Shown: positions 1-3,747, counted from the whole stretch's first letter. The stretch is 63,081 bases of DNA, filler included, from Deltaproteobacteria bacterium (GCA_030698575.1; 9 parts of 9 records of this genome joined end to end with filler, not necessarily neighbours in it), one strand, 5' to 3'. Made by a program: numbers and translations. Notes: generated by a model not told the origin, from the letters alone.

Positions 1-5
1 GGCGT

Positions 6-341
6 TCATGGCTTCATCCCGCCATTTTTGGCGATGACTTCAGCAACAAGATTGATCGGGACGAAACCGTAAACGGTGTCCGTTGGATCGCTATCTTTCC
101 CGTCGATGAACGGCATAAACTCATCGACCTTGGCGCTGGGAAATCCGACCTCGACTTCAAACCACGGGCCAAACCCGTCGCGGGGTTGGCAATAGTGCGA
201 GGGGCCGGTTTGCACCGACATGGTGAGGCCGTTTCCGCATTCGACAATCGGGATGTTGTCCATGTACCCGTCGCGCCCCTGATTGCGGTGGGCGGGCTTG
301 AGGCGTTCCTGCAATTCAGCGACAATCTGTTCGCCGTTCAT
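6..341 (-). CDS. Phage hypothetical protein
   Basis: 111-aa ORF (SVQTGPSHYCQPR...EVGFPS...VYGFVP), ATGA-coupled to the upstream ORF. Confidence 0.75.
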   Translation of the reverse strand: MNGEQIVAELQERLKPAHRNQGRDGYMDNIPIVECGNGLTMSVQTGPSHYCQPRDGFGPWFEVEVGFPSAKVDEFMPFIDGKDSDPTDTVYGFVPINLVAEVIAKNGGMKP

Positions 342-436
342 GTATCTCTCCCTGCACTCATAATCGCGGCGAGCATAAAGCCGAGCATCCCGAAGACGGG
401 CGCTGCGACGGCGAAGCCTGTCCAGAAGGCGGTCAT
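338..436 (-). CDS. Small hydrophobic phage peptide (32 aa, not in ORF track)
   Basis: MTAFWTGFAVAAPVFGMLGFMLAAIMSAGRDT; ATGA overlaps at both ends. Confidence 0.65.
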   Translation of the reverse strand: MTAFWTGFAVAAPVFGMLGFMLAAIMSAGRDT

Positions 437-666
437 TTCGTTTCCTCGGCGGCTATGAGGGCGCGGTGGGCGAGCATGGCGTCGGCGGCCTGATAGGCGA
501 TTGCCCCGTTTTCGTTGTGCCAGCGCACGGTCTGCGAGCCTTGGCTGAGCAATCCGATCAGAGCTTGCCCCGCAAACCAGTCACGTAGCGTCATGCCGAC
601 AACGAGATCGCCATCCTCGTTTGAGCTTGGAAATGCCGCTCCACCGTCTTTCGGGTTGCCGCTCAC
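433..666 (-). CDS. Conserved phage hypothetical protein
   Basis: GGAAFP...GMTLRDWFAGQAL...AYQAADAML, a common phage early-protein motif. Confidence 0.85.
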   Translation of the reverse strand: MSGNPKDGGAAFPSSNEDGDLVVGMTLRDWFAGQALIGLLSQGSQTVRWHNENGAIAYQAADAMLAHRALIAAEETK

Positions 667-995
667 GACTTCTCTCCGGGGTTGGATGGTTCACGGGCGA
701 GGGACAGGGCGGCGCGGGCGCGGCGTTCTACTTGGCCTTTGATGACAAACCCGCCATGCTCTTTCATGCATTCGTCGAGTGCCTCGTACAGTTCCGGCAC
801 GGCGAGCGCCGATGCTATTTTCTCGACGGCTTCAAACTCCATGCGGCGCACATCAATAATTCCGCCGCGCTGCCGTTGCGCTAGTGCTTGTTCGATGCGC
901 CCGCTCTCGCCGCTGAAAATTGCGCGGGCACGGTTCAATGCGCTGTCGCCGCGTAGCAGGGCCATCACCTCGTCGTCCGTGCGCCGGGCGCTCAT
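663..995 (-). CDS. Phage hypothetical protein
   Basis: Start MSARRTDD at 995 is ATGA-coupled to the upstream peptide; stop overlaps the next start. Confidence 0.65.
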   Translation of the reverse strand: MSARRTDDEVMALLRGDSALNRARAIFSGESGRIEQALAQRQRGGIIDVRRMEFEAVEKIASALAVPELYEALDECMKEHGGFVIKGQVERRARAALSLAREPSNPGEKS

Positions 996-1084
996 GTCGG
1001 CACGACTCCCCATATCGCCACGACAATCGCCACGAACATCAGGCCGCACATGGAGCCGGATAGGAGTTGGCGGGTCATGCTCAT
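992..1084 (-). CDS. Small hydrophobic phage peptide (30 aa, not in ORF track)
   Basis: MSMTRQLLSGSMCGLMFVAIVVAIWGVVPT; ATGA overlaps at both ends. Confidence 0.6.
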   Translation of the reverse strand: MSMTRQLLSGSMCGLMFVAIVVAIWGVVPT

Positions 1085-1305
1085 GCGCCGACGCCGAATT
1101 GGCTGTTATCGGCGCGAAGCTGCGCGGCGTCGTCGCTCTCGACGGCGATAAACTCATCAATTGTTTGCTGGATTAGGCCCGCCAGCCGTTCGATCCGCGC
1201 AATGGCGCTTTCGAGATGCGGAACGTCTGGGCAACCATCGAGGCTGTATGCGGCAAGTTCCCAAGCCTTAGCTTGGAAGTCGTATGTTCCAGTTGTGCTT
1301 GCCAT
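1081..1305 (-). CDS. Phage hypothetical protein, first gene of the leftward operon
   Basis: ATG at 1305 with a purine-rich RBS, just downstream of the PL-like promoter. Confidence 0.65.
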   Translation of the reverse strand: MASTTGTYDFQAKAWELAAYSLDGCPDVPHLESAIARIERLAGLIQQTIDEFIAVESDDAAQLRADNSQFGVGA

Positions 1306-1333
1306 ATCCCTGTCCCTTCCGTTCGATGAGGGG

Positions 1334-1385
1334 ACAATGACACGCCATAGCGTGTTGGTCAAGCACGAAACACGCTGCGGCGTGT
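1334..1385 (-). promoter_or_regulatory. PL-like promoter with two operators
   Basis: Minus strand TTGACC(1362-1357)-17 nt-CATTGT; operators ACACGC-CATA-GCGTGT (1340-1355) and ACACGC-TGCG-GCGTGT (1370-1385). Confidence 0.8.
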
Positions 1386-1539
1386 TTTTATTTGCTAGGG
1401 ATTTGGCGCTATCGGGGGAATCCGGTCACTTTTGACCGGATTTCCACAGCCAACAAAGGCGGTGCGTTGTTAGCCCCGTCTTTGGGGCGTACTATGCTGA
1501 GTTGTGAATTGTCGCTTGGCAGAGCATAGGAATAAAATC

Positions 1540-1568
1540 TTGTATTGGCGCGCGGGGGCCGCTATGAT
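1540..1568 (+). promoter_or_regulatory. Sigma70-type promoter reading toward, and antisense to, the repressor gene
   Basis: TTGTAT(1540-1545)-17 nt-TATGAT(1563-1568). Confidence 0.6.
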
Positions 1569-1606
1569 TCCGGGTACAAACGGCGATCAGCCGGTAAGGG
1601 GGGATT

Positions 1607-1807
1607 GTGACGCTCCGCCTTTCGCTTGCCCTCTTGGACGAATGGGACAGACTGACCCCAGAGGCTAAGACGCGCGCGCTTGCTTTTGTGACGGCGCTCG
1701 CTGCGCCCGAAAAAAAGTTAGTGCCGCTTGCTTTTGGTCGTCGGACAGAGAAGAAACCACGCGGATCAGTTCCTCATCCTCGGGCGTCATTTCTGTCCCC
1801 AGAATGA
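1607..1807 (+). CDS. Possible small antisense ORF overlapping the repressor 3' end (candidate antirepressor)
   Basis: GTG start after AAGGGGGG and the 1540-1568 promoter; amphipathic N-terminal helix. Confidence 0.4.
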   Translation: MTLRLSLALLDEWDRLTPEAKTRALAFVTALAAPEKKLVPLAFGRRTEKKPRGSVPHPRASFLSPE

Positions 1808-1997
1808 CGTGAAGGCTGCTGGCGCGGCCTAGCACCTTCAAGAGCCGGACGAGGCGGTCGGTCCCTGGTTGCTTCCCGTTCTTGAGCATTTGCTGGACGT
1901 AGTTTTCCCCACAACGCGCCGCAAGACTGATTTCTTTCAGGGGACGGCCGTCCTCCCGAATCGCCGCTACAAGCCGCTGATACCAACCTTTTTGCAT
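1665..1997 (-). CDS. CI-like XRE/HTH repressor with no S24 peptidase domain
   Basis: LKEISLAARCGENYVQQMLKNGKQP helix-turn-helix; divergent from the cro-like gene. Confidence 0.8.
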   Translation of the reverse strand: MQKGWYQRLVAAIREDGRPLKEISLAARCGENYVQQMLKNGKQPGTDRLVRLLKVLGRASSLHVILGTEMTPEDEELIRVVSSLSDDQKQAALTFFRAQRAPSQKQARAS

Positions 1998-2009
1998 AAA
2001 TCGACGCTA

Positions 2010-2066
2010 ACACGCTGAGGACACGCGATTACGTGTCTTGACCAACACGCCATAGCGTGTCAGATT
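2010..2066 (+). promoter_or_regulatory. PR-like promoter with operators
   Basis: TTGACC(2038-2043)-17 nt-CAGATT(2061-2066); operators ACACGC-GATT-ACGTGT (2021-2036) and ACACGC-CATA-GCGTGT (2045-2060); half-site at 2010-2015. Confidence 0.8.
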
Positions 2067-2072
2067 ACGGGA

Positions 2073-2297
2073 ATGAGCGTCGATCTGCTGACGGAAGTAG
2101 AAGCGTTCCTAGTCGAATCGGGCTTGGGAGAGCACCGCTTTGGCATCTTGGCCGTGAAGAACGGCCGACTGGTCGAGCGGCTGAGAAACAACCGCCGCAT
2201 CTGGCCGGACACGGAAATGAAGGTTCGCGCCTTCATCCGTTCGCGCCGCGATTCACAGAAATCAACACGCAACCTAAGCCGGGGGGTCGCAGCATGA
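2073..2297 (+). CDS. Cro-like small DNA-binding protein
   Basis: LLTEVEAFLVESGLGEHRFGILAVKNGRLVERLR resembles alphaproteobacterial phage Cro-like proteins; ATG lies 6 nt after the -10 box. Confidence 0.8.
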   Translation: MSVDLLTEVEAFLVESGLGEHRFGILAVKNGRLVERLRNNRRIWPDTEMKVRAFIRSRRDSQKSTRNLSRGVAA

Positions 2298-3046
2298 CCG
2301 CTATCGACTTGACGATTCCGACTTCGCTTGATCGTACCAACAATCTTCCGGCGATGGTGGACCGGGCCGCACGGACGCTGGCGAGCGCACACAACGCCGC
2401 CGAAGTTCTGGAAGCCCGCGACATGGCCTCGGTCGCTTACGACGCGGCCAAGCGTGCCGCCCGGCTCATGGCAGCCAAGGGCGCGTTCAACGAACTTCTC
2501 GCCAAGGTGACGCGGGCACAGGCCGAGGCGTTGGAAATTGAAGCCGCCGCGAACCGTCGCATCGCCGACGAATACGACGCGGCGCAGGAGCGGGGGGAAG
2601 TCACTACCGCAGGCGGCGACCGCAGCAAAATTCCAGACGGGAAACTTGCTGGAACGCAAGTCATCCCGCCGAAACAACTCCACGAAGCCCGCATGATCCG
2701 TGACGCTGAAAAGGCGTCGCCGGGGATCGTCGCCAACACCATCAAGGAAGCGATTGACGCGGGACAGGAGCCGACGCGGGCGAAGGTCCGCCGGGCCGTC
2801 CTGAGAACCGTCAAGCCGGATGCTGCGCCGTCTCGTCCGACACGCGGCAAGGCGGCAATCATTCTCCGCGTCCGCGAGGCGATAGCCGCTTTGTCCGGAC
2901 TGCCGCCGGCATACGAAGTCATCGAATACCTGAGAGGTACTGACGACGCTGTGATCGTCGGCGAGCGCCTGCCAGACGCGGCGAAGTGGCTGGCCGCCTT
3001 TGCAGACCTTTGGCCCGAGGAGGACGACAATGCTGAAAATGGCTGA
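2294..3046 (+). CDS. Phage hypothetical helical protein
   Basis: ATG at 2294 coupled to the cro stop; Ala-rich helical N-terminus. Confidence 0.75.
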   Translation: MTAIDLTIPTSLDRTNNLPAMVDRAARTLASAHNAAEVLEARDMASVAYDAAKRAARLMAAKGAFNELLAKVTRAQAEALEIEAAANRRIADEYDAAQERGEVTTAGGDRSKIPDGKLAGTQVIPPKQLHEARMIRDAEKASPGIVANTIKEAIDAGQEPTRAKVRRAVLRTVKPDAAPSRPTRGKAAIILRVREAIAALSGLPPAYEVIEYLRGTDDAVIVGERLPDAAKWLAAFADLWPEEDDNAENG

Positions 3047-3647
3047 CATTCTCCACAGCGTACAGCGTCGCGAGGAAGACGAGCCGGCGGTACTCGACAC
3101 CCGCGTCAAGCCGGTCATTCGCATCATCAACGGGGCACTTGACGAAGACCCGGATTCGCCGAGCGCGATCATACTGAACGGGCGCATCGATCCGAACACG
3201 CTACGCTTTCTCAAAGTGGACAGCAGCTATCAGCGTCCGCTCGCCGATCGTTCCGATATTTTCGAGGCGATCAAGTCCGGCGTCGTCGTGCCGAACATCG
3301 ATATCGGCGTGCGCGGTCAGGATTTCACGACCGATGGCGATGATTTCCTGATCAATTCGGCAGCCTACATCATCGATGGCTGGCAGCGCGTCGGCAACGC
3401 CATGCGCCTGCTTGAACTGATGCCGAACCATCCGGTTCGTATCTTTGCCACGGTGCATTTTGGAACCAACGATATTTGGGAGCGGCACCGCTTCACCGAG
3501 TTGAACAAGAACATTCGCAAGGTGTCGCCGAACCTGCATCTTCGCAATATGCGGGACGGAAACGATGCGGTGTTGACGCTCTACGGTCTGTCCAACAACA
3601 CCCGCGAATTTCAGCTCTACGGCAAGGTGTCGTGGTCGCAGAACATG
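3030..3647 (+). CDS. ParB/DGQHR-like domain protein, 3' truncated by gap
   Basis: VDSSYQRPL and YIIDGWQR motifs; RBS GAGGAGG. Confidence 0.65.
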
Positions 3648-3747
3648 NNNNNNNNNNNNNNNNNNNNNNNNNNNNNNNNNNNNNNNNNNNNTTAATTAAT
3701 TAANNNNNNNNNNNNNNNNNNNNNNNNNNNNNNNNNNNNNNNNNNNN
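3648..3747. other. Assembly linker. Others at 17221-17320, 30376-30475, 33972-34071, 39377-39476, 44758-44857, 56405-56504 and 59063-59162
   Basis: N runs flanking TTAATTAATTAA, which has stops in all frames. Confidence 0.99.

Follow-up and report, generated by a model that had tools for sequence, protein, structure and literature searches.

A small gene lying antisense to the 3' end of a prophage repressor gene, and missed by gene callers, belongs to a conserved protein family that is clearly homologous, at the level of sequence profiles, to the C-terminal two-helix domain of the repressor family itself. We consider it probable, though well short of certain, that its product is a decoy antirepressor of the SinI/AimX kind, which would bind the repressor and block its pairing and which in most relatives would be gated by the SOS response. 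An initial annotation of this DNA had proposed that an antisense ORF resembling the repressor's own C-terminal helix is a mimic antirepressor. That reading is partly supported, by the conservation of the gene, by the profile homology and by LexA boxes in related loci.

The window, by which we mean the whole stretch of DNA analysed (63,081 nt), consists of nine contigs of a Deltaproteobacteria bacterium assembly (GCA_030698575.1) joined by spacers of 44 N, ttaattaattaa and 44 N, with joints at 3648–3747, 17221, 30376, 33972, 39377, 44758, 56405 and 59063; features are to be read within a single piece only. The repressor and the small gene lie on the first piece (1–3647, contig C277 of 653), which has a G+C content of 59.6% as against 65.4% for the whole window. 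Because this contig is only 3.6 kb long and was binned in a 653-contig assembly, its host is uncertain. The features of the locus are collected in Table 1.

Table 1. Features of the repressor/small-gene locus on the first contig of the window (coordinates counted from the first letter of the window).
Feature	Coordinates	Strand	Basis and remarks
OL pair, two 16-nt palindromes ACACGC-N4-GCGTGT	1340–1355 and 1370–1385	.	Repeat search; adjoins a leftward TTGACC −35 box
Hairpin, 13-bp stem, GGGAATCCGGTCA / TGACCGGATTTCC	1416–1445	.	Repeat search
Alternative promoter candidate TTGTCG-18-TAAAAT	1509–1538	+	Passes the consensus-scan threshold
Promoter-like TTGTAT (1540–1545)-17-TATGAT (1563–1568)	1540–1568	+	Faces the small gene
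Shine-Dalgarno-like AAGGGGGG	1596–1603	+	3 nt ahead of GTG 1607
Small gene, 66 codons, GTG start	1607–1807	+	ORF, profile, selection
Repressor, 110 aa	1665–1997	-	HTH domain (helices within residues 5–66) and C-terminal two-helix hairpin (72–83, 86–100)
Repressor residues 70–101, the domain that the small-protein family resembles	1695–1790	-	hhalign and predicted helices
OR pair, same palindrome type	2021–2036 and 2045–2060	.	Repeat search and sequence
Rightward promoter TTGACC-17-CAGATT	2038–2043 and 2061–2066	+	By eye; second OR palindrome within the spacer
Cro-position gene, 74 aa	2073–2297	+	ORF; divergent from the repressor

The locus has the layout of an immunity region, in which a gene in the cro position diverges from the repressor gene and palindromic operators lie both between these two genes and at a second site. 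There are four copies of ACACGC-N4-GCGTGT in the window, two (at 2021 and 2045) between the divergent genes and two (at 1340 and 1370) sited 650 nt leftward, with a TTGACC box adjoining each outer copy. Of the 26 related loci examined, 23 have the operator core, CACGC-N4-GCGTG, at both corresponding sites, the exceptions being L059 and two Bartonella loci, which have AACGC-N4-GCGTT instead. There is thus good reason to regard the 110-aa protein as the putative prophage repressor. The spacing from the second operator site to the small gene ranges from ~120 to ~2,900 nt among the related loci, so that in some phages other genes have been inserted between the two.

The cro-position protein has no family match in Pfam, PHROGs or NCBIfam and is conserved in relatives (the divergent ORFs of L003–L006 and L051) as ...RFG.LA.KNGRLVERLR...WP.TE. 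By eye, the CAGATT hexamer of its promoter ends 6 nt before its ATG, and its mRNA may have no leader, or almost none. Further along the rightward operon (2294–3647) come two more proteins: one matches PHROG 799 ('DNA methyltransferase', E 2.4e-11) over the N-terminal portion of that family, and the other is ParB-like (phrog_1033, E 8.5e-7) and truncated by the end of the contig.

The initial annotation had described the repressor as only 110 aa long and without the S24 self-cleavage domain; the ORF has this length, and a domain search found no S24 peptidase domain in it. Pfam HTH_3 matches the repressor weakly (E 0.016, 15.7 bits, under the cut-off of 23), and the profile of the repressor family matches ClgR (E 2.2e-4) and other XRE chains. 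An AlphaFold model (pLDDT 85) has a five-helix HTH domain followed by the two C-terminal helices given in Table 1, and the fold matches of the repressor are XRE proteins, all at E ≥ 0.04. Among these weak matches the best in the PDB is SinR from the SinR/SinI complex (1b0n_A, E 0.043, TM 0.45), and they include AimC (9iaq_D, E 0.26). The family comprises 448 representative clusters at E ≤ 0.001, with members of ~105 aa throughout, and relatives of the repressor are present on 13 IMG/VR viral contigs; one phage record matching a repressor homologue annotates that homologue only as 'hypothetical protein'. A genome search at the level of the taxonomic family turned up no homologue in its two other genomes.

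The small ORF converges on the repressor gene and overlaps its 3' end by 143 nt (1665–1807), just as initially annotated, and the ribosome-binding site said to face that end is there as well, as the G-rich AAGGGGGG. The claim of a near-consensus promoter held in part: TTGTAT and TATGAT are present at a spacing of 17 nt, and 'near-consensus' is an overstatement, as the −35 hexamer matches TTGACA at three of six positions and the site is not listed by a consensus scan, whose count of two promoter-like sites for the contig compares with 1.1 ± 1.2 in shuffled sequence. The counterpart in L066, the closest relative of the window (96% identical), is TTGTCT-17-TATGAT. Two repeats lie close by. The inner palindrome (GGTCA-N4-TGACC) of the hairpin at 1416–1445 is kept in L066, and this hairpin may mark where the repressor transcript ends. 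The 12-nt sequence CGCTTGCTTTTG occurs as an exact direct repeat at 1677–1688 and 1725–1736, so that the repressor tail contains two copies of QKQA and the small ORF two of LAF; in L066 its second copy differs by one base.

Via the repressor we gathered 78 related loci, of which 50 are on contigs of genomes (searched with a 7-sequence repressor alignment), 13 on viral and 15 on metagenome contigs; with the window these make 79 loci and 10,101 stop-to-stop ORFs of at least 25 aa. The initial annotation had named conservation of the promoter and ORF in related prophages as one check, and for the ORF it was found. When phmmer was run with the first 40 residues of the small protein it returned nine matches among the 10,101 ORFs, each of them on the opposite strand to the repressor and adjoining its stop, and strict HMM iteration extended the small gene to 23 loci. 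At E ≤ 0.01, a profile of 25 representatives then matched 71 ORFs in 71 of the 79 loci, every one of them at the repressor gene's 3' end, in a set from which the profile's own members were drawn and of which 43 loci are Bartonella; at the same threshold it matched nothing elsewhere among the 10,101 ORFs. The 25 representatives align almost gap-free. They share a nearly invariant tryptophan (W13), a hydrophobic first helix, the turn L-(S/T)-P, a K/R position, the pair A-L and one more leucine. Among the remaining loci, the small gene is cut by the contig end in L069 and has an in-frame stop in L039, and six (L050, L052, L064, L065, L079 and L080) have no small gene.

Outside these loci the small ORF has no homologue in the protein collection by homology search, the small protein has no match in Pfam, PHROGs or NCBIfam, its ESM Atlas matches are all <0.8, and Foldseek with a 40-residue model returned nothing below E 2. 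That AlphaFold model (pLDDT 86.6) consists of two helices, at residues 2–15 and 18–32, joined by a turn. The pair of genes is found in the genomes of 43 Bartonella species (L007–L049, at about 2971–3409 of each locus), with the small ORF intact in 42. There it sits in an ORF-poor region (seven ORFs ≥ 70 aa in 6.3 kb of L024) that looks like a remnant kept for a reason.

The likeness of the small protein to the repressor tail, to which the initial annotation had pointed, is marginal for the peptides it quoted and strong between the families. The quoted pair is identical at 8 of 24 positions with an ungapped BLOSUM62 score of 24, and the best local alignment of the window pair scores 38, which taken alone is marginal because 18 of 2000 shuffles reach that score. 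When the small family was aligned by hhalign to a 40-member repressor alignment, the probability was 95.4% (E 1.9e-8) over 43 columns, covering repressor residues 70–110; with the core columns alone it was 91.6%, and the controls (reversed profiles and 20 column shuffles) gave at most 3.2%. Both the small protein and the C-terminus of the repressor are predicted to be two-helix hairpins of the same design. The core of the small protein, ~34 residues, would then either be a paralogue of ancient origin of the repressor's C-terminal domain or copy the structure of that domain very closely. A separate candidate for the source of the likeness, an inverted repeat or hairpin in the DNA, was rejected, as identity within a locus is 36% at codon position 1, 43% at position 2 and 33% at position 3.

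By analogy with SinR and AimC, the C-terminal domain probably pairs repressor subunits on the CACGC-N4-GCGTG operators. Once the small gene is switched on, its product would sit on the C-terminal domain of a monomeric repressor, where a second subunit would otherwise be; with neither dimer nor tetramer formed, the HTH domains would not be paired on the palindromic operators and the prophage would be derepressed. A repressor without a self-cleavage domain would need an antirepressor partner of this sort, and the convergent transcription of the two genes may add a layer at the RNA level. A complex prediction for the repressor with the small protein, run without controls, scored 0.28 against a mark of 0.32 and is counted neither for nor against this mechanism.

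What would switch the gene on differs among the relatives. In 18 of the 26 related loci examined, the 200 nt upstream of the small gene contain a perfect GTTC-N7-GTTC or its complement; this motif is the SOS box given for Caulobacter (PMC9578287, Table 1). Of the 22 boxes found in 127,810 nt, these 18 fall within 5,200 nt, and none of the 18 loci has another box besides the upstream one. By eye, the box either encloses a −10-like hexamer or directly follows a TTGAC-17-hexamer promoter. DNA damage would thus be the trigger in most relatives, because LexA would sit on the small-gene promoter, and a LexA box at this place fits an antirepressor made at the time of induction. None of the 43 Bartonella loci has a LexA box upstream of the small gene; there its promoter would be under the repressor's own operator type instead, a copy of which lies ~30 nt upstream of the small gene.

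The window is a third case. Upstream of the small gene, neither it nor L066 has a LexA box, not even when one mismatch is allowed, so that the SOS link does not hold for the window copy, and neither has an operator nearby, the operators lying 220–270 nt from the small gene. The best near-match in the window, by eye, is GTAC-N7-GATC at 1574–1588 (6 of 8 against GAAC-N7-GAAC), directly after the −10 hexamer; it occupies the place of the relatives' LexA box, is more degenerate in L066, and could be a decayed box or chance. In L003, the closest relative on a genome contig (68% identity), the aligned position has a LexA box over TATAAT where the window has TATGAT. L003 is labelled an uncultured Candidatus Peribacteria MAG; its alphaproteobacterial-type LexA box is at odds with that label, so this contig may be mis-binned. 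As for the window genome itself, the regions upstream of its own lexA and recA have no GTTC-N7-GTTC. Its lexA promoter (TTGACT-17-CAATCT) has a direct repeat, TTTCGCC-N4-TTTCGCC, in the spacer (L081, about 405–425), which may be a different LexA motif, and no clear LexA-like motif was seen upstream of recA.

These differences in promoter input bear on an alternative in which the small protein does bind the repressor's C-terminal domain and merely tunes repression, capping oligomers or OL-OR looping or stabilizing monomers, and so sets the level of immunity or the commitment point. The same profile homology and two-helix predictions would apply, and the pairing of operators at two sites makes higher-order assemblies plausible; moreover, an operator of the repressor's type in place of a LexA box in Bartonella fits feedback better than a trigger, and the window copy, too, is without a LexA box. 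However, the LexA boxes of most relatives would place expression at the time of DNA damage, which is when known antirepressors act according to the account in PMC3121763, and a decoy that has no DNA-binding domain should act in a dominant-negative way, as the description in bioRxiv 10.1101/2025.11.23.689978 has it for AimX and SinI. We rate tuning as unlikely.

Slightly less likely still is that the small protein targets something else, such as the cro-position protein, LexA or RecA, or another phage or host factor, and that its likeness to the repressor is that of a common two-helix design. Short hairpins of amphipathic helices capped by S/T-P-E are indeed common, and no known family matches the small protein. 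Nor is there an excess of similarity between cognate partners: the mean score of small proteins against their own repressor is 2.4, as against 3.56 for those of other loci, and 7385 of 10,000 permutations reach the cognate mean. There is thus no sign of locus-specific co-adaptation; from these comparisons, the likeness to the repressor domain is old and generic. On the other hand, when the small-protein HMM strays among the 10,101 ORFs it strays to repressor C-terminal helices (6 of 6 off-target matches at E ≤ 0.3, and 5 of 6 at E ≤ 1), whereas shuffled and reversed profiles fail. The small gene also stays at the 3' end of the repressor gene while its distance to OL varies widely, and loci whose repressor has a different C-terminus lack it. 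Of the six loci without it, L064, L065, L079 and L080 match the repressor over the N-terminal domain only; the repressor of L052 is truncated.

If the working part were instead an RNA, either an antisense transcript or a terminator structure at the repressor 3' end, with the ORF as a by-product, the arrangement of the genes would be accounted for, as they converge and overlap in every locus and any transcript of the small gene in the window necessarily covers 143 nt or more of the repressor gene in antisense. The pattern of selection argues against this. Over codons 2–35, which lie outside the overlap with the repressor gene, dN/dS among 42 Bartonella species is 0.25 in frame as against 0.74 and 2.16 in the other frames, and in the clade of the window (ungapped start-anchored alignment, well-registered pairs only) the small gene differs from that of L066 by four synonymous and three non-synonymous changes (pS 0.14, pN 0.04) and from that of L003 with pS 0.76 and pN 0.30. 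Two pairs, L055-L056 and L055-L005, were misregistered in that alignment, which makes the ratio of 0.67 pooled over mixed pairs unusable. A start codon at one relative position is conserved (the GTG, GTG and ATG starts of the window, L066 and L003 align), with a G-rich Shine-Dalgarno-like box at the equivalent place in most of 23 loci examined, and amino acid motifs are kept while the DNA diverges. There is also no inverted repeat at the DNA level, and the region has no Rfam match. We thus regard a purely RNA-based function as very improbable, though an RNA effect could exist alongside the protein, and interference by the convergent overlap is plausible. That the ORF arose by chance in GC-rich DNA is scarcely credible: the contig does hold many overlapping ORFs of at least 60 aa and the protein databases hold no homologue, but the near gap-free alignment, the dN/dS of 0.25 and the recovery from 71 of the 79 loci in our judgement refute it.

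By these comparative measures, ORF 1607–1807 is a real, translated-looking gene under purifying selection. The selection does not extend over its whole length. The Bartonella tail that overlaps the repressor gene has a dN/dS of 2.36 in the small-gene frame, so the tail is not constrained as part of the small protein, and the functional core is codons 1–34 (1607–1708). As selection and conservation are confined to this core and the overlapping tail is unconstrained, the working product would be approximately the first 34 residues, and the other 32 codons have the look of a run-on, lying antisense to the repressor gene. The offset of the reading frame relative to the repressor is identical in 25 of 25 minus-strand matches and in the 42 Bartonella ORFs, by arithmetic on the search outputs.

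The decoy reading can be carried further, to a portable two-gene switch, which we offer as a possible but rather doubtful extension. The decoy would be an inverted copy of the repressor's pairing domain, welded to the repressor tail-to-tail at one frame offset, and its promoter would be an exchangeable input: mostly LexA, in Bartonella a self-locking latch through the repressor's own operator, and another input in the window. Convergent transcription would add mutual RNA-level interference, and the Bartonella pair, which selection has maintained in 42 of the 43 species, may have been co-opted as the control of an element beneficial to the host.

A decoy antirepressor would have known counterparts. 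In Bacillus subtilis, sinI lies upstream of sinR in the same direction and is regulated by Spo0A, whereas the small gene of the window is convergent with and overlaps its repressor gene, and most relatives would have LexA control. The SinI-SinR pair (PDB 1b0n) is a host biofilm switch, as opposed to the prophage immunity region here, but SinR at 111 residues is close in length to the 110-aa repressor, has likewise an HTH and a helical C-terminal domain, and is its top, if weak, fold match. According to the description in bioRxiv 10.1101/2025.11.23.689978, SinR combines an XRE HTH with a helical C-terminal oligomerization domain, and SinI, a small helical mimic, forms a heterocomplex with it; like SinI, the small family resembles the C-terminal domain of its repressor, in this case as a profile homologue. 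SinI itself (Pfam PF08671) has no match in the two proteins of the window at E ≤ 0.1, nor in 25 small proteins at E ≤ 1.

AimX and AimC (9iaq) pair a small helical phage protein with an XRE-type phage repressor. The same preprint (bioRxiv 10.1101/2025.11.23.689978) describes AimX as a small, mostly helical phage antirepressor that binds AimC at its C-terminal oligomerization domain, replaces the second subunit and prevents DNA binding, which is the mode of binding we would infer here. In the portion of that preprint used here AimX is not described as a sequence homologue of AimC's own domain, in contrast to the profile homology of the small family to its repressor. The inputs and hosts differ as well: AimX is driven by AimR and the arbitrium peptide in Bacillus, whereas the present family would be driven by LexA in most relatives or a repressor operator in Bartonella, and its hosts are, by record titles, mostly alphaproteobacteria. 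No match to aimR or aimP was found among the 11 ORFs scanned on the 3.6-kb contig, a length that leaves room for a more distant gene.

LexA-controlled antirepressors of non-cleavable phage repressors include Tum of phage 186 and AntC of N15. The Gifsy phages offer a further case, as GfoA and GfhA, according to the account in PMC3121763, are small antirepressors under direct LexA control that bind a non-cleaved repressor and release it from DNA, while FsoA of Fels-1 is controlled by the phage repressor instead. The present family is like Gifsy in having a repressor without an S24 self-cleavage domain and in the LexA boxes of 18 of 26 relatives, but the window copy has no LexA box; the Bartonella variant would parallel FsoA. 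Likeness to the repressor's own domain goes unmentioned for GfoA and GfhA in the portion of PMC3121763 used here. Unlike SinI-SinR, AimX-AimC and the Gifsy systems, the pair described here is arranged tail-to-tail, with the small gene overlapping the 3' end of the repressor gene.

The decoy principle is thus already known, and it is the family that appears to be new, as a literature search of main texts found no earlier description of this small protein with its repressor. To our knowledge, many prophage repressors have no self-cleavage domain, and for most of them the route of induction is unknown. For a family of 448 representative clusters, the unannotated partner gene with its ~35-residue core offers a concrete and testable answer, and its recovery indicates that genes hidden antisense to the 3' end of another gene can be discovered by comparative analysis. 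If the binding is true, the pair would also be usable as a compact repressor/anti-repressor part. In biological terms, a decoy of this kind would extend the principle of pairing-domain mimicry, as in SinI/SinR and AimX/AimC of the Firmicutes, to prophages of mostly alphaproteobacterial hosts, and would join it to the LexA-antirepressor route of the Gifsy phages.
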